A stretch of 64,000 bases of DNA from Candidatus Saccharimonadota bacterium (lineage in GTDB: Bacteria > Patescibacteriota > Saccharimonadia > Saccharimonadales > JACDBH01): positions 36,255-100,254 of the forward strand of contig JAQGGW010000002.1 in NCBI GenBank assembly GCA_028289135.1, in the 5' to 3' direction. Below the pieces are notes generated by a model, which saw only the letters and a program-made list of their open reading frames with translations, searched no databases and was not told where the DNA came from. Of the stretch, positions 1,294 to 60,174 are shown piece by piece. A program made the translations under genes and the position numbers. Every line of letters begins with the position of its first letter. Position 1 is the stretch's first letter.

Positions 1294-1689
1294 GGGACTG
1301 TTTTTTGACAGTTGGATTTACAAGTTGGACCGTGCAGGTCGCTTGCTCAGCGTTATAGGGCAAAACTGAATAAATGCAAAAAACATTTCTTCTCGCGTAT
1401 CTGAATTTAGCGCAGCTTTTGCAGCTTCGTTTAACTCTCAGTTCGCACTAGCAGCTTAATTTATTTTCGCTGCGGCCACTCGTTTGACGTCAGATAAAAC
1501 GTTTTTGGTCTTATATCATCTGGTCGCCTACATGCCTTTACCCTAAGTATGTACTAAGACTTTGGGTCGCTGTATTACGTCATTTTGGTTATTTCGAGAC
1601 GAAATACCTAAGATTTTAAAATAGCCTAAACCTGTAGATCGCCGACGAGTAACTGATTGGACGCGGGCTCAACCCCGCCAGTTCCACCA
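1294..1689 (+). ncRNA. ssrA: tmRNA (transfer-messenger RNA)
   Basis: The 5' GGGACTG pairs with the 3' CAGTTCC followed by ACCA. The T-arm GGACGCGGGCTCAACCCCGCCAGTTCCACCA nearly matches the E. coli tmRNA 3' end. An internal tag reading frame from GCA at 1376 ends in ...FALAA then TAA (1457-1459). Confidence 0.95.
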
Positions 1690-5335: not shown

Positions 5336-5666
5336 GCAATGTGAGTTTCCTTACAGCTTTGTCCCAGCAGTCCGTATTATTATCTAATCACCAACTTACG
5401 TAGTAGGTTGGAACTTATCCTAACATAGGCAGCTATCGACGTTTTTGGCACTGTGGTTTAAATATTTTACCCAGTTTTCGTAAGCCAATAAAACATCTAG
5501 CTGCTTTTCTGATTCCCCACAAAGCAGGCTTTGCGGGGACCCCGGGTGAAAGTTTGTTTATTTCTAATGTTTTTAAGGACGGTTACAGTCTCTTTCGTTT
5601 CGGCAAAAAGACCGGGATGAACCCGGATCTTTTTGGTAGACCATCTAGGAAATTGCTTTAAGGGGT

Positions 5667-15711: not shown

Positions 15712-16848
15712 ATGAATTATTTTGACTACGCGGCCGCGACGCCGATGAGCCCGACCGTACTGGCAGCAATGCAGCCGTATTTTACGGATGCTTTTTATAA
15801 TCCTTCGGCGCAGTACCTTGCCGCGCAGGACGTACGGAAGGCAATTGAAAAGGCGCGAAGTGATGTTGCCGTGATTTTGGGCGCACGGACACCAGAAATT
15901 ATTTTTACAGCCGGTGGCACCGAGGCTAACAACCTGGCCATTCATGGGGTTATGGCGCGCTATCCTGAGGCAAACTGCGTCGTGAGCGCTGTGGAGCATG
16001 ACGCGGTTTTGGAGCCAGCCGGGCAATATGACTGCCGGTTTTGCCCAGTTAAGCCAGATGGCCGGATTGATCTGGATGCTTTAAAAAATTTGATAGATGA
16101 CAAAACAGTGCTCGTGAGCGTGATGTATGCCAACAACGAGATCGGTACAGTGCAGCCGCTGGCCCAGGTTGCCAAAATTTTGCGTGAAATGCAGGCAAAT
16201 CGGACCAAAAACGGCAACACTTTGCCGCTATATTTCCACACCGATGCCTGCCAGGCGCCCAACTATTTGCAGATCCTCCCAAACACTCTGGGCGTTGATA
16301 TGATGACTCTAAACGGTGGCAAGATTTACGGGCCAAAACAGTCGGGAGTACTGTTTGTTAAGTCCGGGATTGAGCTGGAGCCTTTGGTGCGAGGCGGCGG
16401 CCAAGAGCGTAATTTGCGCAGCGGCACCGAAAATGTGGCCGGTATCGTTGGCTTTGCCGCGGCACTAAAAGAGGCGCACGCTATTCGGGAAACCGAATCC
16501 GCCCGCCTTTCTGAGCTGCTACACACGGCTGTTAATTTTATTACCAAAGAAATGCCCAGCGCTGTTTTAAACGGGGCATTTGGCTACCGTTTGCCCAACA
16601 ACCTGCACATTACTTTTCCGGGCGCCGACAACGAACGCTTGATGATGTGCTTGGACGAACAAGGCTTTCAGGTGGCAGTTGGATCCGCCTGCAGCGCCAG
16701 CAGCGACGAACCATCGCACGTCTTAAAAGCCATCGGCATGAGCGACGCGGATGCACAATCCTCGCTCCGCATAACAATGGGCCGCCAAACCACCCGCGAA
16801 GAAATATTAGAACTCCTCAAAGCCTGCAAAGACCTCATCTCAAAATAG
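15712..16848 (+). CDS. Cysteine desulfurase (class V aminotransferase, NifS/IscS-like)
   Basis: The PLP-lysine region is NGGKIYGPKQSG, the active-site Cys loop is GSACSASS, and TGGTEANN lies near the N-terminus. Confidence 0.85.
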   Translation: MNYFDYAAATPMSPTVLAAMQPYFTDAFYNPSAQYLAAQDVRKAIEKARSDVAVILGARTPEIIFTAGGTEANNLAIHGVMARYPEANCVVSAVEHDAVLEPAGQYDCRFCPVKPDGRIDLDALKNLIDDKTVLVSVMYANNEIGTVQPLAQVAKILREMQANRTKNGNTLPLYFHTDACQAPNYLQILPNTLGVDMMTLNGGKIYGPKQSGVLFVKSGIELEPLVRGGGQERNLRSGTENVAGIVGFAAALKEAHAIRETESARLSELLHTAVNFITKEMPSAVLNGAFGYRLPNNLHITFPGADNERLMMCLDEQGFQVAVGSACSASSDEPSHVLKAIGMSDADAQSSLRITMGRQTTREEILELLKACKDLISK

Positions 16849-16882
16849 CCATTTGCTCTCAGCGTCAACTAGTTAAGGACTA

Positions 16883-17022
16883 TTGAGCAAATACCCATGA
16901 AGGTACCGTTCACGCGCGGTGAAGTTGCTGCCGAGCCTATATACAGTAATAGCCTGGTCTCGGCAGACAACTTCCCGGCTCCTCTCAGGGTCCTTTAGTA
17001 CCTTCCTAGGTATTTGCTCAAA
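16883..17022 (+). repeat. Long imperfect hairpin element 'D' (about 140 nt) downstream of the cysteine desulfurase gene
   Basis: Nested complementary arms: GAGCAAATACC/GGTATTTGCTC, GAAGGTAC/GTACCTTC, GAAGTTG/CAACTTC and CTGCCGAG/CTCGGCAG. Only one copy was seen in the window. Confidence 0.6.
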
Positions 17023-17065
17023 GTCCCACGGGAGCTATTTTTGCCGGTCTAAGGCTTATTGACAC

Positions 17066-17305
17066 AAAAGTTCTAAATAAGTGACAACCGTCCGCAAGCT
17101 AAATCCCCTTCCGGCCTGGCTTGCTCATACACTCTTGCGGCTAAGGCTCGCCAAAGCTACAACAAAATCCAGCCGAGGACTGTTTGACGGAGCGTATAGC
17201 TCCTAGTTCCGCAGGCTTGTTGTAGTCTTTGGCAAGAGGCTTACCGAAGTGGGTATGTGGCATGTCAGGCTGGAAGGGGATTTAGCTAAGAAAGTAAAGC
17301 TTGAG
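17066..17305 (-). repeat. Structured element 'A', copy 1 (about 190-nt hairpin plus conserved tails; candidate ncRNA or MITE-like repeat)
   Basis: The reverse complement aligns with 41843-42075. Base and apex are conserved (AGCTAAAyCCCCTTCC...; CAAGCCTGCrGAACT...TCAAACAG.C.TCGGCTGGATTTT). The mid-stems differ in sequence but stay complementary. Confidence 0.7.
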
Positions 17306-17340
17306 TGGGAGCAAACTTTTATCTGTTGTGAGGTGGGGTG

Positions 17341-17368
17341 TTGCGCCAATAGACATAAGGGGTATAAT
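17341..17368 (+). promoter_or_regulatory. Putative promoter of the ATPase operon (leaderless layout)
   Basis: TTGCGC, a 16-nt spacer, then TATAAT (17363-17368). The ATG at 17380 lies 11 nt after the -10 and has no Shine-Dalgarno. Confidence 0.45.
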
Positions 17369-17379
17369 TGTAAACAAGT

Positions 17380-18225
17380 ATGTTCGAAACAAAAATAAAA
17401 AGTTTGATATCACTAAAAAAACTGGCCGCCTTGATGGCTCTGGGCCTGCTTATTACCATAAAGCTAACAGGGGTCCTGAGCGCCCAAAGCGTAACGCGCG
17501 CTTATGGCAGCGACCAGGTTTTGCAGCGCGGCATGATTGTAGGAGTCAATAAAAAAGATTCGTCCAAAGTTGAAGCAATTGATGTAAACCGCCTGTCAAC
17601 GATTTTGGGCGTGGTTGTTAACCCTAATGATTCGCCGATTACTATTTCTAACGACACAAACCACATTTTTGTTACAACCAGCGGCCTGTATGATGTGCTT
17701 GTCAGTGACCAAAACGGCCAAATTTCTAACTCGGATTATATTACCCTTTCATCTGTTGCGGGCGTGGGTATGAAAGCTAGCGGCGAACAAAGCAGTGTGC
17801 TTGGGCGCGCCGCTGGAAGTTTTGACGGGTCGAGCAACGTGCTAAGTACGGCCAGCCTCAAGGACGCTAAAGGAATTGAAAAAAAGGTGCATATTGGGCG
17901 GGTGCGGGTTGATATTAGTATTGCTAAGAATCCGCTTGCCAAAAACACCGACGGCACACCGGCCATCTTAAGCCAAGCCGGTAAGGCAATTGCTGGCCGC
18001 TCAGTCAGCGCGGTCCGGCTTTATATGGGGGCGATTGTATTTATTGTCGGGACAATTATTGCCGGTTCGATCATGTACGCCGGCGTTAAAAGCAGCATTA
18101 TTTCCATCGGCCGCAACCCGCTTACCAGGCGTAGTATTTTGAAGAGCATGCTTGGGGTGGCGGTTACTAGTTTATTGGTATTACTTGTCAGCGTTATCGG
18201 CGTGTATTTACTGCTTAGACTATAG
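17380..18225 (+). CDS. Signal peptide plus a ~190-aa extracytoplasmic domain fused to an ATP-synthase c-subunit-like helical hairpin with no membrane carboxylate
   Basis: Signal peptide ...LTGVLSA|QS. The C-terminal 70 aa form TM - IGRNPL loop - TM, which aligns by eye to the c-subunit (A/G)R(Q/N)PE loop. The position of the conserved Glu/Asp is Ser (GVAVTSLL). The gene occupies the atpE position of the operon. Confidence 0.6.
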   Translation: MFETKIKSLISLKKLAALMALGLLITIKLTGVLSAQSVTRAYGSDQVLQRGMIVGVNKKDSSKVEAIDVNRLSTILGVVVNPNDSPITISNDTNHIFVTTSGLYDVLVSDQNGQISNSDYITLSSVAGVGMKASGEQSSVLGRAAGSFDGSSNVLSTASLKDAKGIEKKVHIGRVRVDISIAKNPLAKNTDGTPAILSQAGKAIAGRSVSAVRLYMGAIVFIVGTIIAGSIMYAGVKSSIISIGRNPLTRRSILKSMLGVAVTSLLVLLVSVIGVYLLLRL

Positions 18226-18295
18226 AGTAGTTTCTTCTTGTGCTTATCCGCTAACGTCTATATTATATAAGGTAATAAGGTGGGAAAAATATAGT

Positions 18296-18919
18296 ATGAA
18301 CGTATGGGGGTTGGGACTGGTCGTAGGAGCATTGCTCGCAGCTGCTCTTGCTTTCGTGTGGGTTGCCTATACCCTCGGTGGCGGGAACAAAGCCCGCGGC
18401 AAGGCGCAGAACGATGCTTTTACAGAGCTAGCCGAAAAAGACGTTGAAAGTATTTTTAATGACGACTTTAGGGAAGAGCTTCGTAACCGCGCGCGGCTTC
18501 ATTTTGAAAAAATCATCGGTGAAAACGCCATGTTTTTGCAGCAAGACCTCCGTTTGACCACATCGCAGTTAAACGAGTATATGAAGGCCGAGATTACCAA
18601 AACGCTCCAAGAAGAGTTTAGTAAATATGAGCAGTCGATCGACGACGCCAAGCAGCTGGCAGTTGATTCGCTGGCTAAAACCCAGATTATTATCGAAGAA
18701 GAGCGCCGGGTCCTAAACGCCAACCTCCAAAAGGAGTTTGAGGGCGAGCGTGAGAGGCTTATTAAGAAGTTTGAAGATAATTTGGCCGAGATTGTTAACC
18801 ACTATGTATTAGACGCCGTTGGCAATGAGATTGACCTGAGCGACCAGCTCGAATTTATCCTCAATGAGTTAGAGGCTAACAAGGCGGCTATTGTGGAGGA
18901 TATCCGCAGTGGCGCTTAA
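18296..18919 (+). CDS. ATP synthase b-subunit-like protein (single N-terminal TM plus long coiled coil)
   Basis: MNVWGLGLVVGALLAAALAFVWVAY is followed by about 180 aa of charged heptad-rich helix. AGGTGGG lies upstream of the ATG at 18296. The 18152 start in the ORF track overlaps the previous gene and is unlikely. Confidence 0.6.
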   Translation: MNVWGLGLVVGALLAAALAFVWVAYTLGGGNKARGKAQNDAFTELAEKDVESIFNDDFREELRNRARLHFEKIIGENAMFLQQDLRLTTSQLNEYMKAEITKTLQEEFSKYEQSIDDAKQLAVDSLAKTQIIIEEERRVLNANLQKEFEGERERLIKKFEDNLAEIVNHYVLDAVGNEIDLSDQLEFILNELEANKAAIVEDIRSGA

Positions 18920-23332: not shown

Positions 23333-23352
23333 AAATTTGCTCCCAAAGCCTC

Positions 23353-23485
23353 ACTCCTTGGAAGTTTCGGCACATTGATTTAGCCGCTGGAGACGTGTTT
23401 ACGCTATTAAATCAACGTGCCTAAACTTCCCGTAAAGCTCACCATGTATTTGAAAGCTTTGTGAAGCCCCCGGATGGGGCTTAAC
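23353..23485 (+). repeat. Structured element 'B', copy 1 (23-bp-arm hairpin plus small GC hairpin)
   Basis: GGAAGTTTCGGCACATTGATTTA...TAAATCAACGTGCCTAAACTTCC plus GTGAAGCCCCCGGATGGGGCTTAAC. It is near-identical in the hairpins to the reverse complement of 42083-42215. It lies between convergent atpC and the 333-aa gene. Confidence 0.75.
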
Positions 23486-25551: not shown

Positions 25552-26757
25552 GTGGGAAAAAGTAAATATATTACTTATGGTTTTTTTGATTTTATAAAAA
25601 AAGCTTTTTATATAGCCGGTGCAGCTATGATTACTATAAGTACGTTATTATTAATGGCTCCACAAAGCGCATCGGCTGCCGCAGGCACGCCGCGTATGAT
25701 AATAATGAGTACCTCGTCAAATGCAGTAGCAGCGACAACGACATATCAGGTGCAGTTTAAAACTATGTCAACTTACACCGGCCAAGCCATAGTAATTGAC
25801 TTCTGTACTTCACCTATCCTGGGCAGTACATGTACCATTCCTACTGGTTTTACTGTAGGCGGTACGCCATCTGTCACAACCAACACCGCGCCAATGACCT
25901 CGCAAGTATGGACATCAACATCAGCAAACTCTGGCAGAACGCTTAAGATGACCCAAGCGACTGGTGTTTCATTTACAAGCGCCACAACTGCTGACTTTAC
26001 AATCAATGCCGTACAAAACCCAACAGCATTGGGTACCTTTTACGCACGCATTTATACCTACGCTGCCACAGCAGGTGCGACAAGTTATACGGATACAGCT
26101 CCTGATACAGGTGCAACCCATGTAGATGACGGCGGTGTCGCTCTTTCTACAGATAATATAGTTACAGTGACCGCGAAAATTCAAGAAACTCTTACCTTCT
26201 GTGTCTTTACGAGTGTTTTAACAACCGGTGTAAGCTGCCCTGGAACTGTTTCTGGTATCAAGCTTGGTGATACCAACGGTGTGCTCGCAAGCCCTACAAC
26301 TGCATATTTGTCCTCAACAAATGCCTCAACACCACTCTATGCCCAGCTTGGTCTTGCGAGCAACGCCACGGCTGGCGTTATAGTGCGGGCAAAATCTACG
26401 GGACCATTACAGTCTGGAGCGAATTCCATACTGGGTACAAACGGTGGAACGGGTTCCTGCCTGACAGATCCTGTAACAACTTCTTCAGAATATGTTGGCT
26501 TTAGAGTTACCGCCGGTACTGGCGGTACCGGTACTCAAACAGCGGATCCAGCATACGCTTGCGGCGCAAGCAATAGTCATAGCTGGGATTCAACGCAGCT
26601 AGCACTTGCTATTGGTGACCCAATACTATCAACTGCTGGCCCATCTACTGAGCCAACGACAGAAGCTTTAGTGGACTTTGTGGGTAAATCGTCAACTACG
26701 ACCAAGCCAGGCACATACGCACTGACAATGACTTTTATTGCGACCGGTTCTTATTAG
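25552..26757 (+). CDS. Secreted beta-rich surface protein, paralog 1 (401 aa)
   Basis: Signal peptide ends SASA|AAGTPRMIIMS. Motifs include FCTSPILGSTCTIPTGF, QETLTFCVFTSV and the C-terminal KPGTYALTMTFIATGSY. It is a tandem paralog of 26898-28088. Confidence 0.65.
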   Translation: MGKSKYITYGFFDFIKKAFYIAGAAMITISTLLLMAPQSASAAAGTPRMIIMSTSSNAVAATTTYQVQFKTMSTYTGQAIVIDFCTSPILGSTCTIPTGFTVGGTPSVTTNTAPMTSQVWTSTSANSGRTLKMTQATGVSFTSATTADFTINAVQNPTALGTFYARIYTYAATAGATSYTDTAPDTGATHVDDGGVALSTDNIVTVTAKIQETLTFCVFTSVLTTGVSCPGTVSGIKLGDTNGVLASPTTAYLSSTNASTPLYAQLGLASNATAGVIVRAKSTGPLQSGANSILGTNGGTGSCLTDPVTTSSEYVGFRVTAGTGGTGTQTADPAYACGASNSHSWDSTQLALAIGDPILSTAGPSTEPTTEALVDFVGKSSTTTKPGTYALTMTFIATGSY

Positions 26758-26897
26758 TATAGTACGTATATTAAATTGAAGCCGGCATAAGAGTAAGGGT
26801 GTGGATAAGTGCATCAATAATCTAATTGTGGCGCTAAACTGTTTATGTTACATTTCTTCTTGTAGGAAAACCAAATAAAAATTAAAAGGAAAATATA

Positions 26898-28088
26898 ATG
26901 TCAAAAATATCTCGCTTAATGAAGCGAATTTCATATATCACCGCTGCGACGGTGATCAGTCTGGGCTCCCTGCTTGGATTTGTGTCGCAAAGCGCATCAG
27001 CTGCTGCAGGCACGCCGCGTCTAATAATGATGAGTAACTCATCGAATGCTGCCGCAACCGCGACAACCGGTTATCAAGTGCAGTTTAAAACGATGTCAAC
27101 ATATACAGGCCAGGCTATTATTGTTGATTTCTGTACATCACCTATTCTAAGTACAACGTGTACAGCTCCAACAGGTTTCAGCGCCGCTGCCGTAACCATA
27201 ACGACTAACACTGCTCCGATGAACACCCAGACATGGACTGCAGCTGCTATAAACTCAAACAGAACAGTCAAACTTACTCAGGCTACTGGCGTGTCGTTTA
27301 CATCAGCTACTACCGCAGACTTTACGCTGAACTTCATCCAGAACCCTACGGCATTAGGTACATTCTACGCTCGTATTTATACTTACTCCGCTGTAGCCGG
27401 TGGAACGAGTTATGTAGACACCGCTCCTGATACAGGCGCAACACATGTTGACGATGGTGGTGTAGCACTTTCTACAGATAACACTGTTACTGTGACAGCC
27501 AAAGTCCAAGAAACTCTTACCTTCTGTGTTTTCACTAGTGTCTCAACAACAGGTGTAAGCTGCCCTGGAACAATTTCCGGTGTGGTCTTAGGTGATACTA
27601 ACGGCGTTCTATCAAGCACTACTACTAACTACCTCTCCAACACTGCTGGTGTAACACCGTTCTACGCACAGCTTGGTCTGGCGAGTAACGCTACAGGTGG
27701 TGTAATAGTGCGAGCAAAATCCACAGGTACATTAACTTCAGGCGCTAATACACTTGCTACGTCAGGTACTGGCTCGGGCTCATGTACTGCCGACTCAGCT
27801 GCCGCAGGAACAGAACAGTTTGGCTTTAACGTCACTGCTGGTACTGGTGGTACTGGAACGCAAACGGCTGACGCAGGTTATGCTTGTGGTGCTGGTAGTC
27901 ATAGCTTTGACACAACCAACACGCCAAACCTAACAAGTGCAACAGGTGACCCAGTACTAAGTACTGCTGGCCCATCTACCGAGCCAACAACCGAAGCATT
28001 GGTACAGTTTATGGCTAAGGCATCGACAACAACCAAATCTGGTGTCTATACCTCAACATTTACCTTCATTGCAACAGGTTCTTACTAA
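26898..28088 (+). CDS. Secreted beta-rich surface protein, paralog 2 (396 aa)
   Basis: It has the same signal-peptide end (SASA|AAGTPRLIMMS). Long identical blocks are shared with paralog 1 (TALGTFYARIYTY, TAPDTGATHVDDGGVALSTDN, LSTAGPSTEPTTEALV). The C-terminus is KSGVYTSTFTFIATGSY. Confidence 0.65.
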   Translation: MSKISRLMKRISYITAATVISLGSLLGFVSQSASAAAGTPRLIMMSNSSNAAATATTGYQVQFKTMSTYTGQAIIVDFCTSPILSTTCTAPTGFSAAAVTITTNTAPMNTQTWTAAAINSNRTVKLTQATGVSFTSATTADFTLNFIQNPTALGTFYARIYTYSAVAGGTSYVDTAPDTGATHVDDGGVALSTDNTVTVTAKVQETLTFCVFTSVSTTGVSCPGTISGVVLGDTNGVLSSTTTNYLSNTAGVTPFYAQLGLASNATGGVIVRAKSTGTLTSGANTLATSGTGSGSCTADSAAAGTEQFGFNVTAGTGGTGTQTADAGYACGAGSHSFDTTNTPNLTSATGDPVLSTAGPSTEPTTEALVQFMAKASTTTKSGVYTSTFTFIATGSY

Positions 28089-40351: not shown

Positions 40352-40766
40352 TGTAATTGGCTTGGATGTGGGCGACAGGCGGGTCGGCGTTGCCATTGCA
40401 AGTTTGGAAGCCCGCATGGCCAGCCCGCTGCTTACAATCGACCGCCAAGTTTCGGATGACATTTTTCTAGAAATTTCGGAATTATTAAAAAAGCACGACG
40501 CCGAAGTGGTAGTGGTGGGATTGCCGCGTGATATGGAAGGGCGTGAGACTGCCCAAACTCGTTCTGCCCGTGACTTTGCTGCAACTCTGGAAAAGTCCTG
40601 CGGATTGCCGGTGCACATGCAGGACGAAGCGGCCACATCGATTGCTGCCGAGGAAACGCTAAAAGAGCTGGGCAAACCTTACCAAAAAGGTGACATCGAC
40701 AAATACGCGGCGGCGATTATTTTAGATGACTGGCTGGCAAACGCTGTACAAACGGAGTCAAAATAA
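40335..40766 (+). CDS. ruvX: Holliday-junction resolvase-like pre-16S rRNA nuclease (YqgF/RuvX)
   Basis: IGLDVGDRRVGVAIAS at the N-terminus, VVVGLP, and DEAATSIAAEE. Confidence 0.85.
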   Translation: MATTRNVIGLDVGDRRVGVAIASLEARMASPLLTIDRQVSDDIFLEISELLKKHDAEVVVVGLPRDMEGRETAQTRSARDFAATLEKSCGLPVHMQDEAATSIAAEETLKELGKPYQKGDIDKYAAAIILDDWLANAVQTESK

Positions 40767-41833
40767 TGGCATACAAAGTCAAAAAAAATTCACATCGTTT
40801 GCGCAAAGCTCTTATCATTTTTGTAATTATTGTAGCGGTTGTTGGCGTAGGCGCTTTGCTTGTGGTCCGCCGCATCTACACCGAAAACCTGCGGGCTGTA
40901 ACTCCAGACGTTCACACCCAAGTGGTTGTCGCTATTCCGGCTGGGTCTTCGCTAAATCAAATTGCCCAGATTTTAAAGACAAAACAGGTCATCAGGGCCG
41001 ACTGGGCGTTTAAACAATACGTCCGTAGTCACGAGCTGGGTGACAAACTAAAAGCTGGCACTTACAGGCTTTACAGCGACGAAAACGTGGGCACAATTGC
41101 GAACTTTTTGGTAGCTGGAAAAGTGGCGGTTGATCTGTTTACCATCTTGCCGGGCCAGCGGATTGACCAAATCCGTAAGACGTTTATTGACGCCGGCTTT
41201 ACGGCTGCCGATGTCGACAAAGCATTGGACGCAAACAACTACGCCGGCCACGCGGCTCTAGTGGACAAACCAGCGGCTGCCAGCCTAGAGGGCTATTTAT
41301 ATCCTGATTCTTTCCAGCGCACCGCCGACACCAGCCCAACGACCATTGTTGTACAGTCGCTCGACGAAATGGCAAGTTACTTAACCGCCGACCTTCGTAG
41401 TGCCTATGCCGCCGAAAACCTTACCACCTACCAAGCCATTACATTGGCAAGTATTGTCGAGCGCGAAGTTGCCAGCCAGGAAGACCGGGCCACAGCTGCC
41501 CAGGTATTTTTAACGCGGATCAAGCAGGGTATGCGTTTGCAGTCCGACGTTACTGTTATTTATGGCATGGCGCTTGCGGGCAAAGATACCTCCATTGTCG
41601 ACACCAGCTTTGCCTCCCCATATAACACATTTTTGCATGACGGCCTGCCTGTTGGTCCAATATCCAACGTTACCAAAAGCGGCCTTCAAGCTGTAGCCCA
41701 CCCCTCTTCCACCGACTATCTATATTTTGTAGCTGGTGACGGCTCCGACTATGGCAAGACCTATTTCTCCAAAACAATTGCCGAACACCAAGCCGCTGTA
41801 GCCGCCCACTGCAAAACCTGCGCCCAGCAGTAA
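40766..41833 (+). CDS. mltG: Endolytic murein transglycosylase (YceG-like)
   Basis: It has an N-terminal TM, ASLEGYLYPDSF, ASIVEREV, and YNTFLHDGLPVGPISN. Confidence 0.85.
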   Translation: MAYKVKKNSHRLRKALIIFVIIVAVVGVGALLVVRRIYTENLRAVTPDVHTQVVVAIPAGSSLNQIAQILKTKQVIRADWAFKQYVRSHELGDKLKAGTYRLYSDENVGTIANFLVAGKVAVDLFTILPGQRIDQIRKTFIDAGFTAADVDKALDANNYAGHAALVDKPAAASLEGYLYPDSFQRTADTSPTTIVVQSLDEMASYLTADLRSAYAAENLTTYQAITLASIVEREVASQEDRATAAQVFLTRIKQGMRLQSDVTVIYGMALAGKDTSIVDTSFASPYNTFLHDGLPVGPISNVTKSGLQAVAHPSSTDYLYFVAGDGSDYGKTYFSKTIAEHQAAVAAHCKTCAQQ

Positions 41834-41842
41834 CCCACTATT

Positions 41843-42075
41843 TAAGTTTTCTCCTCTTAGCTAAACCCCTTCCAGCCTGACATGACTGATCCGCACAACG
41901 GTAAGCTCCCAGTCAAAATAACAGCAAGCCTGCAGAACTCGGCACTTAACGTGCCTTCAAACAGCTTCGGCTGGATTTTGCTGTTATTTTGACGGAGCTT
42001 AGCCGTAAGTGCGGATAGCATGCTCAGGCTGCAAGGGGGTTTAGCTTGCGGACGTTTATCCCTTATTCGTAACTT
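41843..42075 (+). repeat. Structured element 'A', copy 2
   Basis: A hairpin spans 41859-42046 and includes a perfect 16-bp stem (41912-41927 with 41978-41993). The apical mini-hairpin is GGCAC-TTAAC-GTGCC. The element begins 10 nt after the mltG stop. Confidence 0.7.
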
Positions 42076-42082
42076 ACTCCCC

Positions 42083-42215
42083 GTGAAGCCCCATCCGGGG
42101 GCTTCACATGACTTTAAGCTACACAGTTAGTGTTGCGGGAAGTTTCGGCACGTTGATTTAATAGCGTAAAACTGTCTCCAGCGGCTAAATCAATGTGCCG
42201 AAACTTCCAAGGAGT
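42083..42215 (-). repeat. Structured element 'B', copy 2 (inverted relative to copy 1)
   Basis: Its reverse complement matches 23353-23485 almost base for base in both hairpins, while the linker between them differs. It abuts element A copy 2 with a ~7-nt gap. Confidence 0.75.
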
Positions 42216-42500
42216 AAAACGAAGAGAGCATAAAAAACAGACTTTTATGGTTGTAATGTAGAGAAAAAGGTGTTTTTTGAGGGTTTTTGAATAACAGGGG
42301 TGGAATTTGTGGATAACAGGGGTTAAAAACCTTTTGCAAGGGTTGACCATAATGTGGGTAGTTGATACACTTTTAGATACGGCTTTAAGAGGTGTTCAAT
42401 CTGTTTAACAGATAAGACACAGGAAGCCGTTGAATACGCATTTAATAAGATAGAACTTTTACACAATAGTGCAGTCCAGGATGAAAGCCGAGCACAAAAG

Positions 42501-43736
42501 TTGAGATGTATACAGAAATACATTGAGACTTTTTGTCGCAGGCTTTCGCCTGGAATGTGCATTGTGTATAAGTTATATAAGGAGAAAGCTATTCGTAGCC
42601 TAACCCGTTTGACTGAATTACCTAAAGATGCGACAAATTCAGCCATATCACTCAAGACGAAATTATCCCGCACAGTAACGGTCAAGCGTTACCGCAAACG
42701 CTTTATTCGTTATGGTTTATTAGTTGGTAACTTGGCAATTGTTGCTGTGGCTGCCATGCTTGTGCTGCATAATCCAAGCGATAAAATGCCACACAGCAGC
42801 GCCGCGGTTGCTGACTCGCAGGCAACTAACCCTCTAGATACACTATCTGCCGCCGACATTGCTGTAACGGCTGCTCGTATGACTAACTTGGTAGAGACAA
42901 CGGCTGTTACAAACCAGGCTGATTCGGTGGCTGCCGACCTTAATACGCACGTCGTGGACTATGCTGTTGTGCCTAAACCGCAGATCCTACCCTCTGTAAC
43001 CAAGACAAAGGCCGATATCAAAGACTACACAGTCCAGAACGGCGATAGCTTGGGCGACCTGGCTACAAAGTTTGGTGTTACAAGCGACAGTATTAAGTGG
43101 TCTAACGGACTCACTTCCGCGACATTAACTCCTGGCAACGTTTTGGCTATTCCGCCAATTGACGGGATTGTTTATACCGTAAAAACTGGAGATACGGCTG
43201 AAACACTGGCTTCCAAATACTCTGCAAACAAAGACCAGATTACGGTTTTTAACGACGCCGAGGTAACGGGTCTTAAGGCCAACGATCGTATTGTCGTGCC
43301 CGGTGGCAGCATCGCTCCACCGCCGCCAGTGACAACAACTTATTATGGGGGCAATTATGGAGGCGGTGTCGTAACGGCAATCTATAGCGGCAACGGCTAT
43401 GACTATGGATGGTGTACCTGGTATGTTTCAAACCGCCGTGCCGAGATTGGCCGCCCAGTGCCAAATAACCTTGGCAACGCTTATAGCTGGTACGTAATTG
43501 CCCAGCGCGCTGGTTTGCCCACTGGCGGCAGTCCAGAGGTAGGCGCGGTCGCAGTAAACCAAGGCGGCAACCATGTATCTGTTGTGGAACAAGTTAATGA
43601 TGATGGCAGTTTTTGGATTTCGGAAATGAATGCCAGCGGGCAGGTTAGCATGACGGACTCGCGCGGTGCTGGTGGCTGGGGTCGTATAGACTATAGATTA
43701 GTTCCTTCAGTTGGTTCTCTTAAATTCATTTATTAG
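42501..43736 (+). CDS. Peptidoglycan hydrolase: N-terminal TM, 2 x LysM, C-terminal CHAP amidase/peptidase
   Basis: LysM repeats are YTVQNGDSLGDLATKFGV and YTVKTGDTAETLASKYS. CHAP motifs are GWCTWYV, NAYSWY and GNHVSVVE. The start is uncertain: AAGGAG (42579-42584) lies 6 nt before an in-frame ATT at 42591. Confidence 0.8.
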   Translation: MRCIQKYIETFCRRLSPGMCIVYKLYKEKAIRSLTRLTELPKDATNSAISLKTKLSRTVTVKRYRKRFIRYGLLVGNLAIVAVAAMLVLHNPSDKMPHSSAAVADSQATNPLDTLSAADIAVTAARMTNLVETTAVTNQADSVAADLNTHVVDYAVVPKPQILPSVTKTKADIKDYTVQNGDSLGDLATKFGVTSDSIKWSNGLTSATLTPGNVLAIPPIDGIVYTVKTGDTAETLASKYSANKDQITVFNDAEVTGLKANDRIVVPGGSIAPPPPVTTTYYGGNYGGGVVTAIYSGNGYDYGWCTWYVSNRRAEIGRPVPNNLGNAYSWYVIAQRAGLPTGGSPEVGAVAVNQGGNHVSVVEQVNDDGSFWISEMNASGQVSMTDSRGAGGWGRIDYRLVPSVGSLKFIY

Positions 43737-45364: not shown

Positions 45365-45487
45365 GGGGGCTTTCGTACGTTGCACATTTTGAACGAATAG
45401 CTCCGCTCCGTTTCTCCATGTATTTCTGTATACACTCCGAATCCGGTGCTCGCTATTCGTCCAAACTGCACTAGCGTACGAAACCCC
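45365..45487 (+). repeat. Structured element 'C', copy 1 (candidate 3'-UTR RNA motif)
   Basis: The conserved core is CCGTTTCTCCATGTAyTTCT.TGTACACTCCGAATmCGGTkCTC. Internal-loop strands TTGCACAT.TT and AA.CTGCACTA are flanked by two stems that differ from copy 2 yet remain complementary. It starts 4 nt after the obg stop. Confidence 0.7.
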
Positions 45488-53390: not shown

Positions 53391-53503
53391 CTCACTGGCT
53401 TGCACATCTTGCACGTAAGCCTGCGATCCGTTTCTCCATGTACTTCTCTGTACACTCCGAATACGGTTCTCGGCTATACGCACAAGCTGCACTAAGCCAG
53501 TGA
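53391..53503 (+). repeat. Structured element 'C', copy 2
   Basis: It has the same conserved core and internal-loop strands as 45365-45487. The outer stem is TCACTGGCT (53392-53400) with AGCCAGTGA (53495-53503). It starts 10 nt after the rplY stop. Confidence 0.7.
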
Positions 53504-53777: not shown

Positions 53778-55523
53778 TTAATCCTCTAAGAAGCCGCCGG
53801 ATTGGTGCGCCCAGAGCCGTGCGTAGGTGGCTTTATTCTTAAGCAAATCTGTATGCGAGCCCTCTTCAACTATTGTGCCTTTGTCTAACACCACGATCCT
53901 ATCCATGCGCTGGATGGTGCTGAGGCGGTGGGCAATGACAATGGTAGTTTTATCCATCATGAGTTCTTTTAGTGCTGCTTGGATAAGGACTTCGCTTTCA
54001 GAATCCAATGAGCTTGTTGCCTCGTCTAAAATCAAAATCGGCGCGTCCTTTAATATTGCCCGGGCAATCGCCACCCGCTGTCTTTGACCACCAGAAAGTT
54101 TTATCCCGCGTTCACCAACAAGAGTGTCGTAGCCATGCGGCAGTGTTTCAATAAAATCATGGGCGTTAGCTTTTTTGGCGGCTGCAACGACTTCTTCATC
54201 GCTGGAGCCTGGTTTGCTGTAGCGGATATTTTCCCTGATCGAGCGGTGAAACATCAGTGTATCTTGAGGGACATAGGCAATCGCGCTTCGTAAATCGTCC
54301 TGGCGGACATCAGCAATAGCCTGCCCATCAATCAAAATCTCACCAGACCTTAGGTCCATAAAACGCAGCAACAGTTTTGTAATCGTGGTTTTGCCGCCTC
54401 CGCTGGGACCTACCAGACCAACTTTTTCACCAGGAGTAATCATAAGGTTTAGTGAATTAAACAAGGTGTTGCTTTGGCCGCCGTAGTCAAAACAAACATC
54501 TTTAAATTCAACAGAGCCTTTTGTTACTTTTAGCGCCACTGGATGATCAGGATCTTTAACTTTTGCTTCACGCATTAGAAGCTCAGTCATCTCATGAGCG
54601 TCACCAAGCAGGCCTTCAAACTGCCTAACAAACAGGCTGGTCTTTGCGATACTGTCGACAATGCGGAGAACATAGACTTCAAACAAAAGGAAGATAGGCA
54701 GGCTCACGCTGCCCGACTGCACGGCGCGAATTCCGCCAACAACGACGATAACTTGCAACAGGCCGCACAAAAGCTGCACAGCATAATGGTTTCGGACGCC
54801 AACGGTCCAGCTTCTGTCAAAAAGTTTCATCCTGGCAGTGTTGGTAAGGCTATATCTTTTAGCCTCATATTTTTTGCCAGAAAAGGTTTTTACAGTCACG
54901 GCGTTGGTGACGGAATCGGCCAATTCACCCGTTTGCCTGGTTTCTTCGGCCACAGCGCGCCTTCGGACTGGCATGCGCCTGATGGCGAGGTAGATAACAA
55001 TGCCTACGGAGCCCAGCCAACACACCAAAACGGCCAGTCCAATCGGCACGCTGTAATAAAACATGATTGCCAGCGCAATAACCACCGACCATAGCTGTCC
55101 AATCATATCCAAGAAAAGGGTGTTATGAAACAGCTCAAAAGCTTTCGCGAACCGGTTTGCCTGGGAAACTAATGAGCCGCCAAAGTTGTCGTTAAAAAAG
55201 TCGTATTCTTGGTTAAGCAACACATCAAAGCTTTTGGTATGAATATCGCGAATTATCTGAAGCGCCGTTGGCTTTGAACCGTAAGTATCCGCTAAGTACC
55301 ACATGGTTGCGCCAAAAAATAGCGACAAAGCCGTTAGCCATATATAACTTGTACTAACTTGATGGTGCGCTACTAATTGACCCAAAATTTTGGCTACAAA
55401 AAACGGGGCCACAATAGTCTGGAGCATATAGGCTGGTCCGAGTAACGAGCTTATAAACACGATCAGTTTGTGCCTTCGCATATGCGACCCAAATATTTGA
55501 AGTGTTTTTATACCTGTAGACAT
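53778..55523 (-). CDS. ABC exporter, fused permease and ATPase (type I exporter half-transporter), third of three
   Basis: It has six N-terminal TM helices, Walker A GPSGGGKTT, signature LSGGQRQR and Walker B ILILDEATS. Confidence 0.9.
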   Translation of the reverse strand: MSTGIKTLQIFGSHMRRHKLIVFISSLLGPAYMLQTIVAPFFVAKILGQLVAHHQVSTSYIWLTALSLFFGATMWYLADTYGSKPTALQIIRDIHTKSFDVLLNQEYDFFNDNFGGSLVSQANRFAKAFELFHNTLFLDMIGQLWSVVIALAIMFYYSVPIGLAVLVCWLGSVGIVIYLAIRRMPVRRRAVAEETRQTGELADSVTNAVTVKTFSGKKYEAKRYSLTNTARMKLFDRSWTVGVRNHYAVQLLCGLLQVIVVVGGIRAVQSGSVSLPIFLLFEVYVLRIVDSIAKTSLFVRQFEGLLGDAHEMTELLMREAKVKDPDHPVALKVTKGSVEFKDVCFDYGGQSNTLFNSLNLMITPGEKVGLVGPSGGGKTTITKLLLRFMDLRSGEILIDGQAIADVRQDDLRSAIAYVPQDTLMFHRSIRENIRYSKPGSSDEEVVAAAKKANAHDFIETLPHGYDTLVGERGIKLSGGQRQRVAIARAILKDAPILILDEATSSLDSESEVLIQAALKELMMDKTTIVIAHRLSTIQRMDRIVVLDKGTIVEEGSHTDLLKNKATYARLWAHQSGGFLED

Positions 55524-55539
55524 AACGTTATTGTACCAG

Positions 55540-57315
55540 TTACTCTTCTATAAAACCGCCGGATTGGTGGTTCCATAGCTTTGCGTAAGTGCCCTTAGCT
55601 TTTAGAAGTTCCTCGTGCGTGCCTTGTTCGACAATCTGCCCTTTGTCCATAACAATAATCTTGTCCATGTGCCGCAGTGTAGAAAGCCGGTGGGCTATGG
55701 CAATGACCGTTTTGTGTTCCCATAAAGCTTCCAAGCCCTGCTGTACTAAGACTTCACTCTCAGAGTCGAGCGCACTTGTCGCCTCGTCTAAAATTAACAA
55801 TGGCTTGTTGTCCAAGAGCGCGCGTGCGATGGCAATCCTTTGGCGTTGTCCTGCCGAAAGTTTTACGCCGCGCTCCCCAACCAGTGCGTCATAACCATCG
55901 CTAATCTGCGAAATAAACTCGTGGGCATGGGCTTTTTTAGCGGCTTCAATAATATCCGCACGGGTAACCTCCTGGTCCGTCGCATAGGCGATATTTTCTG
56001 CCACACTGCGATGAAACAAGCTTGTGTCTTGTGGTACGTATGAAATTAATTTCGCAAGGTCATGTCCGCTAATATTACTGCCATCAAGCAAAATCTGATC
56101 TCCAGATATTTCGTAGTAACCCAGCAAAAGTTTGGTAAGCGTCGTTTTGCCGCTACCGCTTCGCCCTACAATACCGAGTTTTTCGCCTTTTTTAAGGCTC
56201 AGATTAATATTATTAAGCACATTGGTATCGAGCTTATCTGGGTAGGCAAAGTATAGATTATTAAGCTTTAATTCATGCTCAAAAACCAGTGTTTTAGAAA
56301 TTACAGCGTGGTTTTCTTTATTGTTTACGACAGCATGTTCATCACCAAATAAATAACGGTGTGCCTCTTCAATCCGTGAAAGCCGCAAATTAAACTGCGA
56401 AAGATGCCAAACCAGTTGCCATACGGAGCTTGAGAATATAAGTATTGTTGAAAGCAATGTCGCAAGCTGGGAAATAGAGATTTGGTGGTGTAAAAACAGG
56501 TAAACATTCAGGCCAATAGTTGCTGGCCACATAATATCCCGCACAAAAAAGCCCATTGAACCCCAGAAGATTATTGACCAAACATAGGACTTATTGGCAG
56601 CTTTAATGGTTTTCTTTTGTTCTCCCACAATCATTGAGAGTTCAGCCGATTCTTTTTGGAATGACTTAATGTTTACAAAATTTGCTATGGCATCGATAAG
56701 CTTACCGTTTTTAGTAGATTGGACATCTGCAGAGATTTTTTCGTATTTTGTAGTGTTACGGATAGTACGCCGCCCCACTAGGAACATACATAGTATTCCA
56801 ACCAGGAATATAGCGCCGGTTTGCCAGTTAATTGAGGTCAAAATTATGGCAATTACAATCATCCCAACAAACTGGCTAGTGTATTCGTAAAAAAGATTAT
56901 CGACCAACCCGCGTATTTCTGTGGATATTGTGGTGATATAAGAAGAAATCTTGCCGGTAAATTTGTCGACAAAGTATGGATAGGGTTTTTCTATAACCTG
57001 TTTAAATAACACGTTTTCATACTCATAGCCAAGCGGTAAAATCAGCTTCATATGTACAAATTCACCCAAACGCCAGGTAAGGTTGTGGCCGCTGCTGCAG
57101 ATAATTAGCAGCCATACATATATCACTGCTTGGTGTCCGTTTACAGGGTTAGCTGCCAATACTCCAACAAGTTTTCCAATAAATAACGGCATTAGTGCAA
57201 GCAATATATTTGAACAAACAAAAACAATAAAAACAGTTGCGAAGCGCCGCTTGTAGTTGCGCACGTAACGGTAAAACGTCTGGATTGAGTAATAGGTTTT
57301 CTTATTTTTGCTCAT
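55540..57315 (-). CDS. ABC exporter half-transporter, second of three
   Basis: Walker A GRSGSGKTT, variant signature LSAGQRQR, and Walker B LLILDEATS. Confidence 0.9.
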   Translation of the reverse strand: MSKNKKTYYSIQTFYRYVRNYKRRFATVFIVFVCSNILLALMPLFIGKLVGVLAANPVNGHQAVIYVWLLIICSSGHNLTWRLGEFVHMKLILPLGYEYENVLFKQVIEKPYPYFVDKFTGKISSYITTISTEIRGLVDNLFYEYTSQFVGMIVIAIILTSINWQTGAIFLVGILCMFLVGRRTIRNTTKYEKISADVQSTKNGKLIDAIANFVNIKSFQKESAELSMIVGEQKKTIKAANKSYVWSIIFWGSMGFFVRDIMWPATIGLNVYLFLHHQISISQLATLLSTILIFSSSVWQLVWHLSQFNLRLSRIEEAHRYLFGDEHAVVNNKENHAVISKTLVFEHELKLNNLYFAYPDKLDTNVLNNINLSLKKGEKLGIVGRSGSGKTTLTKLLLGYYEISGDQILLDGSNISGHDLAKLISYVPQDTSLFHRSVAENIAYATDQEVTRADIIEAAKKAHAHEFISQISDGYDALVGERGVKLSAGQRQRIAIARALLDNKPLLILDEATSALDSESEVLVQQGLEALWEHKTVIAIAHRLSTLRHMDKIIVMDKGQIVEQGTHEELLKAKGTYAKLWNHQSGGFIEE

Positions 57316-57316
57316 A

Positions 57317-59104
57317 TTAATCCTCTAAGAAGCCGCCTGATTGGCGCTCCCATAACTTGGCGTAAACGCCTTTTTTATTTAACAAATCTTTGTGGCTGCC
57401 TTCTTCAACAATTTGTCCGTCGCCCAGCACAATAATCCGGTCCATTTTTTGGATGGTGCTCAGGCGGTGGGCAATGACGATGGCGGTGCGGCCTTCCATG
57501 AGCTTCCACAGTGCGTCCTGAATCAGCGCCTCACTTTCACTGTCTAGCGCGCTGGTGGCTTCGTCCAACACCAATATTGGGGCGTTTTTAATCATCGCCC
57601 GGGCAATGGCAATCCGCTGTCGCTGCCCGCCAGAAAGTTTGACACCGCGTTCGCCAACCACGGTGTCGTAGCCGTGCTGCAGGGTTTTAATAAACTCATG
57701 CGCGTGCGCCTTTTTGGAAATAGCGATAATTTCTTCTGGGTTGGCGTCGGGCTGGCCGTAGGCAATGTTTTCGGAAATAGTGCGGTGGAACAAAATCGGT
57801 TCCTGCGGCACATATGAAATGTTGCGGCGCAGGTCGGATTGTTTAACATTGGCAATATTTTGTCCGTCAATCAAGATCGCGCCGCCGTTAATGTCAGAAA
57901 AGCGTAACAAAATCCGGGTAAGCGAAGTTTTACCAGAGCCCGAATGCCCAACCAGCCCAACCTTTTCACCAGGGCTAATGCTAATATTAAGACCGTCAAA
58001 AATAGCTGAGGCTGCTCCCTTGTGCCTGAAAGTGACGTCATTAAAACTAATCGCCCCCTCATTCATGCGTGAAGTCTCGGGCTCTACTGGGTCTTTTATT
58101 TCAGCAGGACTGTTTAAAATCTGAACCATTGCACTGGCGTCGCCTATCGAGCGGTTGTAGTTGCGAAGAGCAGAGTTGCTAAAGCTAAAAAGTTGCTCGG
58201 TAATGCTGGATGCGTAGCTTAGGATCAAAAACACGGTGGCTAGGTCAGCCTTAAAGCTCACAATACTTACGATCGCGAGCGCTAAAGCCATTGTCTGCGT
58301 GGTGCGCGACACAGCACCAAAATAAAACATTTGTTTCATGTGGGCTCGCGTTAGCGCTTTTAATTTGCTACGAGTAAATTCGGTACGTTTTTCGAATTCT
58401 GTTTCCTCAAAATCTTCACCAGCAAAACTTTTTACGGCCATAACGTTTCCGACGACGTCTGCAAGGTAGCCAGATTGCTGGCTTTCGGCATCTGCGTGCA
58501 TAGCGCCGGATTCACGGATAGATTTTGAAAGTAAAAAAGCAACGGTAAGATAGATAGAGGCAAACAAAATAATAAACGCAACAAATAATGGAGCCCGTGG
58601 CAGCATAATTACGGCTACTAAGACGATAAATGAAATTAACCCAATGGTCGTATAGGCGGTAGTGTCGGCAATTCGGACATAGGCGCTCAAAAGCTTGTTG
58701 GTCTGCGACACCATTGAACCGCTAAAGTGGTTGGCATGAAAATCTGCGCTTTCGTTGGCAATATGGTTAAAGACTTCCTTGGCGATGTCTTTTTCTACTT
58801 TTGCTTCAAGCCCAAACACAAATATGTCAACTATCCGCCAGCTTACAAAACCCGTAAATAAAATTAGTCCTGCGTAGAGAAGAATAGAATGGCCAAAACT
58901 CTGCCATGGTTGATGCGCGACAAAGTCATGGGTTGAAAGCCGACGTATAACGTTAGCAACAATGAGCGGTGGCAAAATTTGGCCGCACAAAATAGTAACT
59001 GGAATCATAATCAGCGCGCCAAAAAAGCTTACTGGATATTTTTTAACGTGTCGCCAGTAGTAGCGGGCAACTTGTCTTGATTTAGTTTTGGAAGATGTGG
59101 GCAT
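57317..59104 (-). CDS. ABC exporter half-transporter, first of three
   Basis: Walker A GHSGSGKTS, signature LSGGQRQR, and Walker B ILVLDEATS. There is a 1-nt gap to the next gene. Confidence 0.9.
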   Translation of the reverse strand: MPTSSKTKSRQVARYYWRHVKKYPVSFFGALIMIPVTILCGQILPPLIVANVIRRLSTHDFVAHQPWQSFGHSILLYAGLILFTGFVSWRIVDIFVFGLEAKVEKDIAKEVFNHIANESADFHANHFSGSMVSQTNKLLSAYVRIADTTAYTTIGLISFIVLVAVIMLPRAPLFVAFIILFASIYLTVAFLLSKSIRESGAMHADAESQQSGYLADVVGNVMAVKSFAGEDFEETEFEKRTEFTRSKLKALTRAHMKQMFYFGAVSRTTQTMALALAIVSIVSFKADLATVFLILSYASSITEQLFSFSNSALRNYNRSIGDASAMVQILNSPAEIKDPVEPETSRMNEGAISFNDVTFRHKGAASAIFDGLNISISPGEKVGLVGHSGSGKTSLTRILLRFSDINGGAILIDGQNIANVKQSDLRRNISYVPQEPILFHRTISENIAYGQPDANPEEIIAISKKAHAHEFIKTLQHGYDTVVGERGVKLSGGQRQRIAIARAMIKNAPILVLDEATSALDSESEALIQDALWKLMEGRTAIVIAHRLSTIQKMDRIIVLGDGQIVEEGSHKDLLNKKGVYAKLWERQSGGFLED

Positions 59105-59283
59105 GGCGCTGGCCCTCCTAGGGTGCCGCGCTTAAATAAAATGAAATAACAAAAGAACTTTTATTTTAAATTTTTGTTTCCAAACAGGGTTTTTTGCCGC
59201 CTCGTTAATACTATTGATCTATCACTATACGCTTATGTAAACGGGCTGGCAAGTATTTTATTTTGAGGTTATAATAAGTGTAA

Positions 59284-60132: not shown

Positions 60133-60174
60133 ATACTTGTAATTATATCGTAATTATGCTATAATTATACTGTT

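Follow-up and report, generated by a model that had tools for sequence, protein, structure and literature searches.

REPINs are doublets of repetitive extragenic palindromic (REP) sequences which form hairpins and are mobilised by RAYT transposases (Bertels & Rainey 2011, PMC3116915); they have conserved ends and a less conserved spacer, compensatory changes are common in them, they insert beside one another, and their hairpin has been proposed to matter in single-stranded DNA (ssDNA) or mRNA (PMC3116915). In bcr1, compensatory changes keep a double-stranded RNA structure, 5-bp direct repeats are present and the genomic distribution is non-conserved; many such repeats lie at gene 3′ ends, are co-transcribed and are able to alter mRNA stability, as ERIC is (Delihas review, PMC3184786). 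Here we describe Element A, a long hairpin repeat present in two copies in a stretch of 64,000 nucleotides (the window; positions 36,255 to 100,254 of contig JAQGGW010000002.1) from the chromosome of an uncultured Candidatus Saccharimonadota bacterium. We suggest, with a probability of roughly 0.6, that Element A is an insertion element, palindromic, non-autonomous and specific to its lineage, of the same general kind as miniature inverted-repeat transposable elements (MITEs), REPINs, ERIC and bcr1. We read it so because it is a discrete unit, its two copies are diverged, opposite in orientation and without transcription signals of their own, the corresponding sites in relatives are empty, its fold has been kept and neighbouring repeats behave alike. 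A sequence-only reading of this DNA had preferred a functional RNA or ssDNA hairpin to a MITE copy; the empty sites, the opposite orientations, the lack of a -10 box or terminator, and the recurrence of the same pattern in two other hairpin families of the window (C and D, below) speak against that preference.

The unit measures ~245 bp: a leader of ~25 nt is followed by a hairpin of 188-191 nt and a tail of ~29 nt (n = 2 copies; coordinates of this and all other features are in Table 1). Column identity between copy 1 and copy 2 is 83% across all 291 columns and 87% in the core of 221 columns, with no homology between their flanks outside the unit. Two hairpin copies with a conserved base, tail and apical strands had been claimed from the sequence, and this is what we find: the base-helix arms and the apex strands are 86-94% identical, and the tail is 72% identical (25 columns, 197-221, of alignment A2; consensus TGCGGACGkTTrTCmCTTATT..AACTT). 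The middle stems, which had been called unrelated, are diverged rather than unrelated, since together with the apical mini-hairpin they are 55-61% identical and can be aligned. The hairpin ‘family’ has two members only.

Each core folds as a nearly unbranched hairpin. The RNA folding energy is -100.9 kcal/mol for the core of copy 1 (z -7.7) and -113.7 kcal/mol for that of copy 2 (z -12.7), with none of 200 shuffles per copy as stable; as ssDNA the values are -53.9 kcal/mol (z -8.9) and -65.1 kcal/mol (z -13.0). The two strands fold about equally well, and the G.U counts have no consistent strand asymmetry. All of the internal pairings quoted earlier, including the copy-1 middle stem, are present; in copy 2 the middle stem GTCAAAATAACAGCAA / TTGCTGTTATTTTGAC is 100% complementary. 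Drawing the apex unbranched (AGCC/GGCU together with a covarying R-Y pair) makes copy 2 less stable by only 1 kcal/mol, so that a three-way junction is not required. Both copies share a conserved base helix (AGCTAAAyCCCCTTCC.GCCTG / CAGGC.G.AAGGGGrTTTAGCT), and terminal inverted repeats are therefore present, trivially so because the whole unit is a palindrome. Its 5′ arm is one base shorter in copy 2 (AAACCCC against AAATCCCC), which results in a bulged G. Other irregularities are common to both copies: an extra 3′-arm base at CGG-TAAGC/GCTTAGCCG, a 2-nt 5′-arm bulge at this same place (copy 1 has TT, copy 2 has CA) and a T.G wobble.

The stems have diverged in concert. RNAalifold gave 63 common pairs; in nine of them both partners had changed, and no pair was altered on a single side or broken. 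The number of double changes was zero in all six controls with slid partners, and nine were reached in 2 of 500 shuffles. A bulge-tolerant, pair-aware comparison gave 51 unchanged pairs, 11-14 double changes and 2 single changes, with about 11 positions paired in one copy only. Had the arms changed independently at the observed stem divergence, 2.1-2.4 compensated doubles and ~29-30 one-sided changes would be expected, and the excess of compensated pairs over independence has P = 6.5e-6 to 1e-7. The compensatory stem changes noticed at first sight are thus borne out (9-14 compensated pairs against about 2 expected), as is the covariation of the apical mini-hairpin, GGAGC-TATAC-GCTCC in copy 1 versus GGCAC-TTAAC-GTGCC in copy 2. 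Nor are the substitutions evenly distributed: identity is found at 58 of 100 positions in the middle stems and mini-hairpin, and at 104 of 121 in the remainder (Fisher P = 3.5e-6). Compensated pairs far above chance, together with substitutions concentrated in the stems while base, apex and tail are conserved, indicate that it is the fold of Element A, and not the sequence of its stems, that is maintained.

The two sites of Element A stand out in a compact genome. Intergenic gaps in the open reading frame (ORF) map of the window are mostly <200 nt, and the two copies occupy two of the three largest, of 531 nt and 667 nt; the third (18226-18890, 665 nt) is probably coding and an artefact of ORF selection. 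As comparison we used the closest relatives available, L030 (JGI contig Ga0500643_000022) and L041 (NCBI GCA_043743105.1), which are 94% identical by AtpD and by Obg respectively, and the next relatives, with AtpD/Obg 89-90% identical (ENA scaffolds L032-L038 and L044). All of these have conserved synteny. The gap of 531 nt between the cysteine-desulfurase gene (csd) and the 281-aa gene, where copy 1 lies, is 253 nt in L030, which has the inner hairpin of C and no Element A, and about 70-115 nt in L032 and L035 (89%), which have neither. The gap of 667 nt between the YceG/MltG-like gene (yceG) and the LysM-CHAP gene (lysM), where copy 2 lies, compares with 89 nt in L041, whose Obg is 94% identical, and with 93 nt in L044 (90%). 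Presence/absence polymorphism at orthologous sites is thereby shown for both copies, and, as both sites are free of the element in relatives, Element A was inserted or acquired in this lineage at both.

An artefact in the metagenome-assembled genome was ruled out by independent contigs and by the conserved synteny: Logan contigs of run SRR13312994, an independent assembly, match copy 2 in its entirety, and copy 1 for half of its length, with 100% identity, and the gene order at both sites is identical to that of the relatives, so that neither misassembly nor inversion is involved. We had taken the breaks of these Logan contigs (inside copy 1 of A and at the start of copy 2 of Element B) as a possible sign of high copy number; this was dropped, as the other ends of the contigs break within genes.

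No third copy came to light. The covariance-model search of host DNA and relatives that had been called for after the first inspection was run with a model (R1) built from both copies: with filters off, only the two known copies were found in the window, no copy was found in ~10.4 kb of extra sequence from the same genome (two copies in about 74 kb of genome), and nothing A-like was found in ~137 kb from relatives. Two conserved blocks of 21-22 bases had 0 exact matches in the GTDB species representatives (one genome per species). An 18-base block, CCCCTTCCNGCCTGACATG, matched 27 loci in JGI metagenomes, all of them chance matches of 19-28 nt and mostly within genes; viral contigs gave no match, or chance matches without support from the covariance model, and blastn against phages, plasmids and E. 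coli genomes found no match to Element A. A concatenated six-frame translation searched against a set of 5.8 billion proteins gave no spurious ORF lying on other copies. The 73-aa translation of copy 2 had a sole match among 1.84 billion representatives, P0241, which we rejected as a homologue since it is a 1325-aa protein of tandem ~57-aa repeats and the match is a repeat-driven false positive.

Signals for transcription are equally scarce. No sigma-70-type promoter or terminator consensus flanks either copy of Element A, and no U-tract follows the hairpin at either copy. Hexamers resembling a -10 box occur at a window average of 8.9 per kb; in or next to either copy, the only ones are the boxes that belong to the downstream genes. 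Closest comes a TACAAT (17367-17372, - strand), which lies ~52 nt upstream of copy 1 as that copy is oriented and is the mirror of the TATAAT of the 281-aa gene; it is the single point that might favour transcription of copy 1 in the sense direction. As the four neighbouring genes all lie on the + strand, the copies are oppositely oriented relative to local transcription: copy 1 is antisense to both of its neighbours, and copy 2, which begins 1 nt past the stop codon of the YceG/MltG-like gene, could be no more than a read-through 3′ region. Lacking its own signals and missing from relatives, Element A would seem a poor candidate for an independent RNA gene.

Known RNA families give no alternative identity. 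In the whole window the sole match to Rfam 15 at gathering thresholds is a transfer-messenger RNA (tmRNA) gene at 1294-1689 (+) (RF00023, 77.1 bits, E 3.2e-28). With permissive filters and E<=10, copy 1 has no match at all, and copy 2 has only eukaryotic microRNA and small nucleolar RNA noise far below threshold, as is expected of any long hairpin. From the sequence alone the element could not be matched to tmRNA, RNase P, signal recognition particle (SRP) RNA, 6S RNA or riboswitches, and Rfam, without a match for either copy, agrees. 6S RNA, SRP RNA, ribozymes and HEARO/omega RNA were ruled out by the same lack of a match. A retron msr-msd was rejected as there is no reverse transcriptase; the neighbours encode a cysteine desulfurase, a 281-aa protein, YceG and a LysM-CHAP protein.

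Element A does not stand alone, for the window has at least three further families of hairpin-forming repeats, which we call B, C and D. Element B, unrelated to A, is made of a short GC hairpin (GAAGCCCC..GGGGCTTC) and a long hairpin of ~70 nt; its copies B1 and B2 are 88% identical over the aligned unit (84% by an ungapped repeat finder), and B2 follows directly after copy 2 of A. At the B1 site L030 reads GATGTTTAGCCAGT, with a single TTTAG, where the window reads GACGTTTAG, then 148 nt, then TTTAGCCAAC; against this empty site B1 is a clean 153-bp insertion with a 5-bp TTTAG target-site duplication. In hairpin C the inner hairpin is 92% identical in L030, while the outer stem has a 14-nt block (ATTGAGCAAATACC versus TTTCCTCTAAAGCC) that is wholly different on each arm, with pairing kept; such a change looks like a block swap more than point-by-point compensation. 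Family D, a hairpin of ~95 nt, follows obg and the L25 gene, is found again either upstream of the LysM-CHAP ORF or within its 5′ end, and recurs outside the window behind secG; 13 of 32 predicted pairs have compensated changes among three copies. Concerted changes of the two arms are thus general among the hairpin repeats of this genome, and not particular to Element A.

The families also share their manner of placement. Copies cluster as convergent pairs (C> beside <A1, and A2> beside <B2), and five of eight (A2, B1, C, D1 and D2) start 1-20 nt past the stop codon of a co-oriented gene. The 8-mer TGCTCYCA, found four times in the window against 3.2 expected, which is chance level, and as TTTGCTCCCA in two cases, stands in three of the four cases at the ends of C, A1 and B1 (16854-16861, +; 17306-17313, -; 23338-23345, +). 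Noticed post hoc, it may be a terminal motif shared by C, A1 and B1.

Table 1. Elements, their parts and adjoining genes, in window coordinates unless a relative’s contig is named
Feature	Position	Strand	Remarks
Cysteine-desulfurase gene (class-V aminotransferase, csd)	15712-16848	+	gene before copy 1 of A
Hairpin C	16852-17026	+	directly after csd gene, abuts copy 1 of A; counterpart in L030 at 5440-5590
Element A copy 1, whole unit	17068-17313	-	limits of homology with copy 2; 263.9 bits with covariance model R1; between csd and 281-aa gene
Copy 1, 3′ tail	17068-17096	-	TGCGGACGGTTGTCACTTATTTAGAACTT; from alignment with copy 2
Copy 1, hairpin core	17097-17287	-	191 nt; base helix AGCTAAATCCCCTTCC/GGAAGGGGATTTAGCT
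Copy 1, apex	17180-17203	-	mini-hairpin 17189-17203; conserved 3′-side loop TCAAACAG 17180-17187
281-aa gene	17380-18225	+	gene after copy 1 of A; head of ATP synthase cluster
Element B copy 1 (B1)	23333-23485	-	right after atpC stop codon; flanked by duplicated TTTAG
YceG/MltG-like gene	40766-41833	+	gene before copy 2 of A
Element A copy 2, whole unit	41834-42075	+	251.4 bits with covariance model R1
Copy 2, hairpin core	41859-42046	+	188 nt
Copy 2, apex	41941-41964	+	mini-hairpin 41941-41955; conserved TCAAACAG 41957-41964
Copy 2, 3′ tail	42047-42075	+	TGCGGACGTTTATCCCTTATTCGTAACTT
Element B copy 2 (B2)	42083-42240	+	hairpin repeat unrelated to A; abuts copy 2 of A
LysM-CHAP gene (lysM)		+	gene after copy 2 of A and B2
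Family D	45378-45472, 53398-53493, 42466-42562 (-)		~95-nt hairpin; partial copy at L039 12928-12964 (end of L039)

We propose that Element A would have been spread by a protein encoded elsewhere. On a folded single strand, either ssDNA during replication or transposition or perhaps RNA, this protein would recognise the base helix and the apical loop, both of them conserved. Recognition of this kind, directed at base and apex of the folded strand, would explain why the fold is kept while the sequence of the stems drifts. Once inserted behind a gene the element, having no promoter of its own, would be transcribed only by read-through, and either strand would give the upstream message an RNA hairpin of ~90 bp at its 3′ end, which could serve as an exonuclease barrier or as an RNase III target, and so could stabilise or destabilise that message. 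Template switching between the arms of the quasi-palindrome may add to the concerted changes, but could not account for the conserved bulges or the slowly evolving base, apex and tail.

Several points weigh against an insertion element. No mobilising type of enzyme (transposase, RAYT or reverse transcriptase) was seen in 40 ORFs of the window or in the gene calls of the flanking contigs. These 40 ORFs, scanned with Pfam, were without transposase, RAYT, integrase, recombinase or reverse transcriptase and had no match to Y1_Tnp; the other ORFs of the window were identified via Pfam marks on the syntenic genes of relatives or left unscanned, and Pfam marks on the gene calls of two flanking Logan contigs and of the relatives’ contigs included none for transposase, RAYT, integrase or reverse transcriptase. 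Element A is known from two copies only, and nothing like it is present in any relative searched. The copies differ by 13-17%, which suggests that any mobility would not be recent. A sequence-conserved apex is unexpected for a classical DNA-level MITE, where the termini alone matter. Lastly, no target-site duplication can be defined for Element A: no consistent direct repeats stand at its limits of homology, and its flanks have changed too much relative to the empty sites. Short stretches of suggestive direct similarity do surround the larger inserted blocks (GGGAGC.A..TTTT around copy 1; CACTATTTA-like around A2 and B2 together).

A broader idea is that Element A, with B, C and D, is the substrate of an undescribed hairpin-dependent system of Saccharibacteria, being either a mobilisation enzyme that recognises a folded single strand by its conserved base helix and apical loop, or a structured RNA with a defined protein partner. 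The TGCTCYCA shared by the ends of A1, B1 and C is a hint of one common machinery, but we regard such a system as unlikely.

Rather unlikely too is that the copies are two paralogous genes for a new structured noncoding RNA, acting in trans or as a protein scaffold, in which the base helix, the apical internal loop (UCAAACAG) and the tail would be functional surfaces and the stems would be spacers kept as helices. Such an RNA would fit the compensated pairs and the uneven rates of change, as well as the bulges and the G.U pair that are conserved in the element’s orientation; a cUUCGg-type loop is possible in copy 2, and the -10-like TACAAT (- strand, 17367-17372) could drive copy 1. It sits badly with the absence of a promoter or terminator consensus at either copy, with the start of copy 2 at 1 nt past a stop codon, with the lack of an Rfam match, and with the element’s absence both from relatives whose AtpD or Obg is 94% identical and from all collections searched. 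It sits badly, too, with the about equally good folding of the two strands, whose G.U counts have no consistent asymmetry, and with the occurrence of the same covariation in an unrelated hairpin repeat of the window, family D. The earlier claim of selection on structure stands as regards the fold, which is kept by compensation and with uneven rates, and is not supported as regards a functional RNA or ssDNA hairpin in preference to a MITE copy: since compensated stems are met in families C and D, in REPINs and in bcr1, covariation between two copies cannot separate an RNA gene from a structure-dependent mobile repeat. As a point of method, compensatory stem changes between copies are not sufficient for calling an RNA gene, as mobile palindromes give the same signal.

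Template switching is a mechanism known from E. coli quasi-palindrome mutagenesis. The concerted changes could be its mutational by-product, arising by switching between the arms, with Element A no more than inert repeated DNA whose fold is kept free of charge; this we consider improbable. Concerted arm changes are found in families A, C and D alike and the DNA hairpins are very stable. The change of the 14-nt block of hairpin C on both arms, beside sequence that is 92% identical, is one for which point-by-point compensation is not an easy source. Such a process should, however, make asymmetries vanish, yet both copies share their bulges and T.G wobble as well as an extra base at GCTTAGCCG, and about 11 positions are paired in one copy only; it would also leave unexplained why base, apex and tail are slow relative to the stems. 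The process is in any case partly compatible with an insertion element, and not exclusive of it.

We give little weight to a DNA-level site, either a folded recombination site of attC type or an inverted pair for inverting the 24.5-kb segment between the copies. The copies are mutually inverted with tails outward, flanking 17.3-41.8 kb, and have conserved extrahelical bases. The attC R-box pattern is RYYYAAC/GTTRRRY and attC hairpins are 57-141 nt long. The base of copy 2, GCTAAAC...GTTTAGC, is one mismatch from this pattern on each side; copy 1, however, has GCTAAAT/ATTTAGC, with AAAT/ATTT in place of the near-invariant AAC/GTT, its hairpin and that of copy 2 are 188-191 nt long, and no integrase or recombinase was found in the 40 ORFs, so that an integron attC was rejected. 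The orientation and gene order of the segment are the same as in relatives without the elements, and an inverted arrangement of two copies is a coin toss. IS200/IS605-type strand-specific insertion was also set aside: GC skew is positive throughout the window, so both copies of Element A are on one replichore, where their opposite orientations speak against it, on the strength of two copies only. Just as improbable is a cis-acting 3′-end hairpin, whether terminator, insulator or stabiliser of mRNA, that arose separately at each locus and was never mobile, which would suit the very stable fold of either strand and the start of A2, B1, C, D1 and D2 at 1-20 nt past a co-oriented stop codon, but not the antisense position of copy 1, the missing U-tract, the empty sites in relatives, or the 83-87% identity over 245 nt at loci 24.5 kb apart, which includes the non-palindromic apex and tail and so implies copying rather than convergence.

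Saccharibacteria and other Patescibacteria have very small, compact genomes that are usually thought poor in repetitive DNA. In the literature we found no description of hairpin repeats in Saccharibacteria or Patescibacteria. The window holds at least four families of intergenic hairpin repeats, inserted behind housekeeping genes; the repeats are absent from sister lineages. If this extends genome-wide, small structure-dependent mobile repeats would be active in Saccharibacteria, and the hairpin repeats would be lineage markers and possibly 3′-end RNA structures that affect the fate of mRNAs.

Some further observations concern the genes of the host rather than its hairpins. In many genes a TATAAT box stands 7-10 nt before the ATG with no Shine-Dalgarno sequence (17363-17379, 59267-59283, 60158-60174 and others), which suggests that leaderless mRNAs are widespread in this organism. 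A doubled AACAGGGGT motif lies just 5′ of the LysM-CHAP gene (42290-42330; 8580-8615 in L041; 8405-8440 in L044), is kept in relatives without the inserted elements, and is probably a promoter or operator feature. The window contains tandem paralogues (25552-28088 and 53778-59104): an adjacent pair of ~400-aa ORFs without a Pfam match has DNA blocks that are 71-80% identical, and three neighbouring ABC-transporter genes, 65-74% identical, came out of the repeat finder as one family. Upstream of the window in the same genome (L040 661-3927) is a gene for a UvrD/PcrA-type helicase of 1088 aa with a match to an intein-splicing domain.

Element A may be set beside several known systems. Like 6S RNA and SRP RNA it is about 190 nt and mostly one irregular hairpin; unlike them it has no large central bubble and has a closing stem of about 65 bp, it is absent from close relatives, it occurs as two opposite copies without promoters, and it has no Rfam match at E<=10. 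With integron attC sites it shares a hairpin folded from a single strand, with a conserved base, extrahelical bases and a variable stem, in which structure is conserved over sequence, but its hairpin is too long, its copies are opposite in orientation and there is no cassette array.

Among the mobile palindromes, REPINs and bcr1 behave most like Element A. ERIC and MITEs such as Correia, RUP and Nezha are, like Element A, small imperfect intergenic palindromes, often just behind genes, in either orientation and at polymorphic sites, and ERIC-type repeats are co-transcribed and can change mRNA stability (PMC3184786). ERIC-type elements differ from Element A, as it is known here, in having TA target duplications and recognisable terminal inverted repeats related to an insertion sequence; Element A has no similarity to any E. 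coli genome searched, where ERIC resides, and its conserved apex is atypical of classical MITEs. The bcr1 element of the Bacillus cereus group (~155 bp; PMC3184786) is like Element A in a distribution that is not conserved between related genomes. It is transcribed with neighbouring genes, where for Element A we propose read-through, and it is flanked by 5-bp direct repeats, where Element A has none definable and the neighbouring Element B has one. We set the two side by side by description, as their host phyla are unrelated and likeness of sequence is not expected.

REPINs share much with Element A: both are intergenic, non-autonomous and hairpin-forming, occur in either orientation and clustered with unrelated hairpin repeats, and hold their hairpin by compensatory changes in a less conserved interior. 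REPINs, however, carry short GC-rich REP palindromes at their ends and number hundreds of copies, whereas the arms of Element A pair only with each other, two copies of it are known, its 188-191-nt hairpin has a conserved non-palindromic apex and a 3′ tail, and no RAYT (Y1 transposase) is among the ORFs scanned. While membership of a named family is not established, Element A is best grouped, as a new family of very small size, with the ‘bacterial interspersed palindromic repeat elements’.

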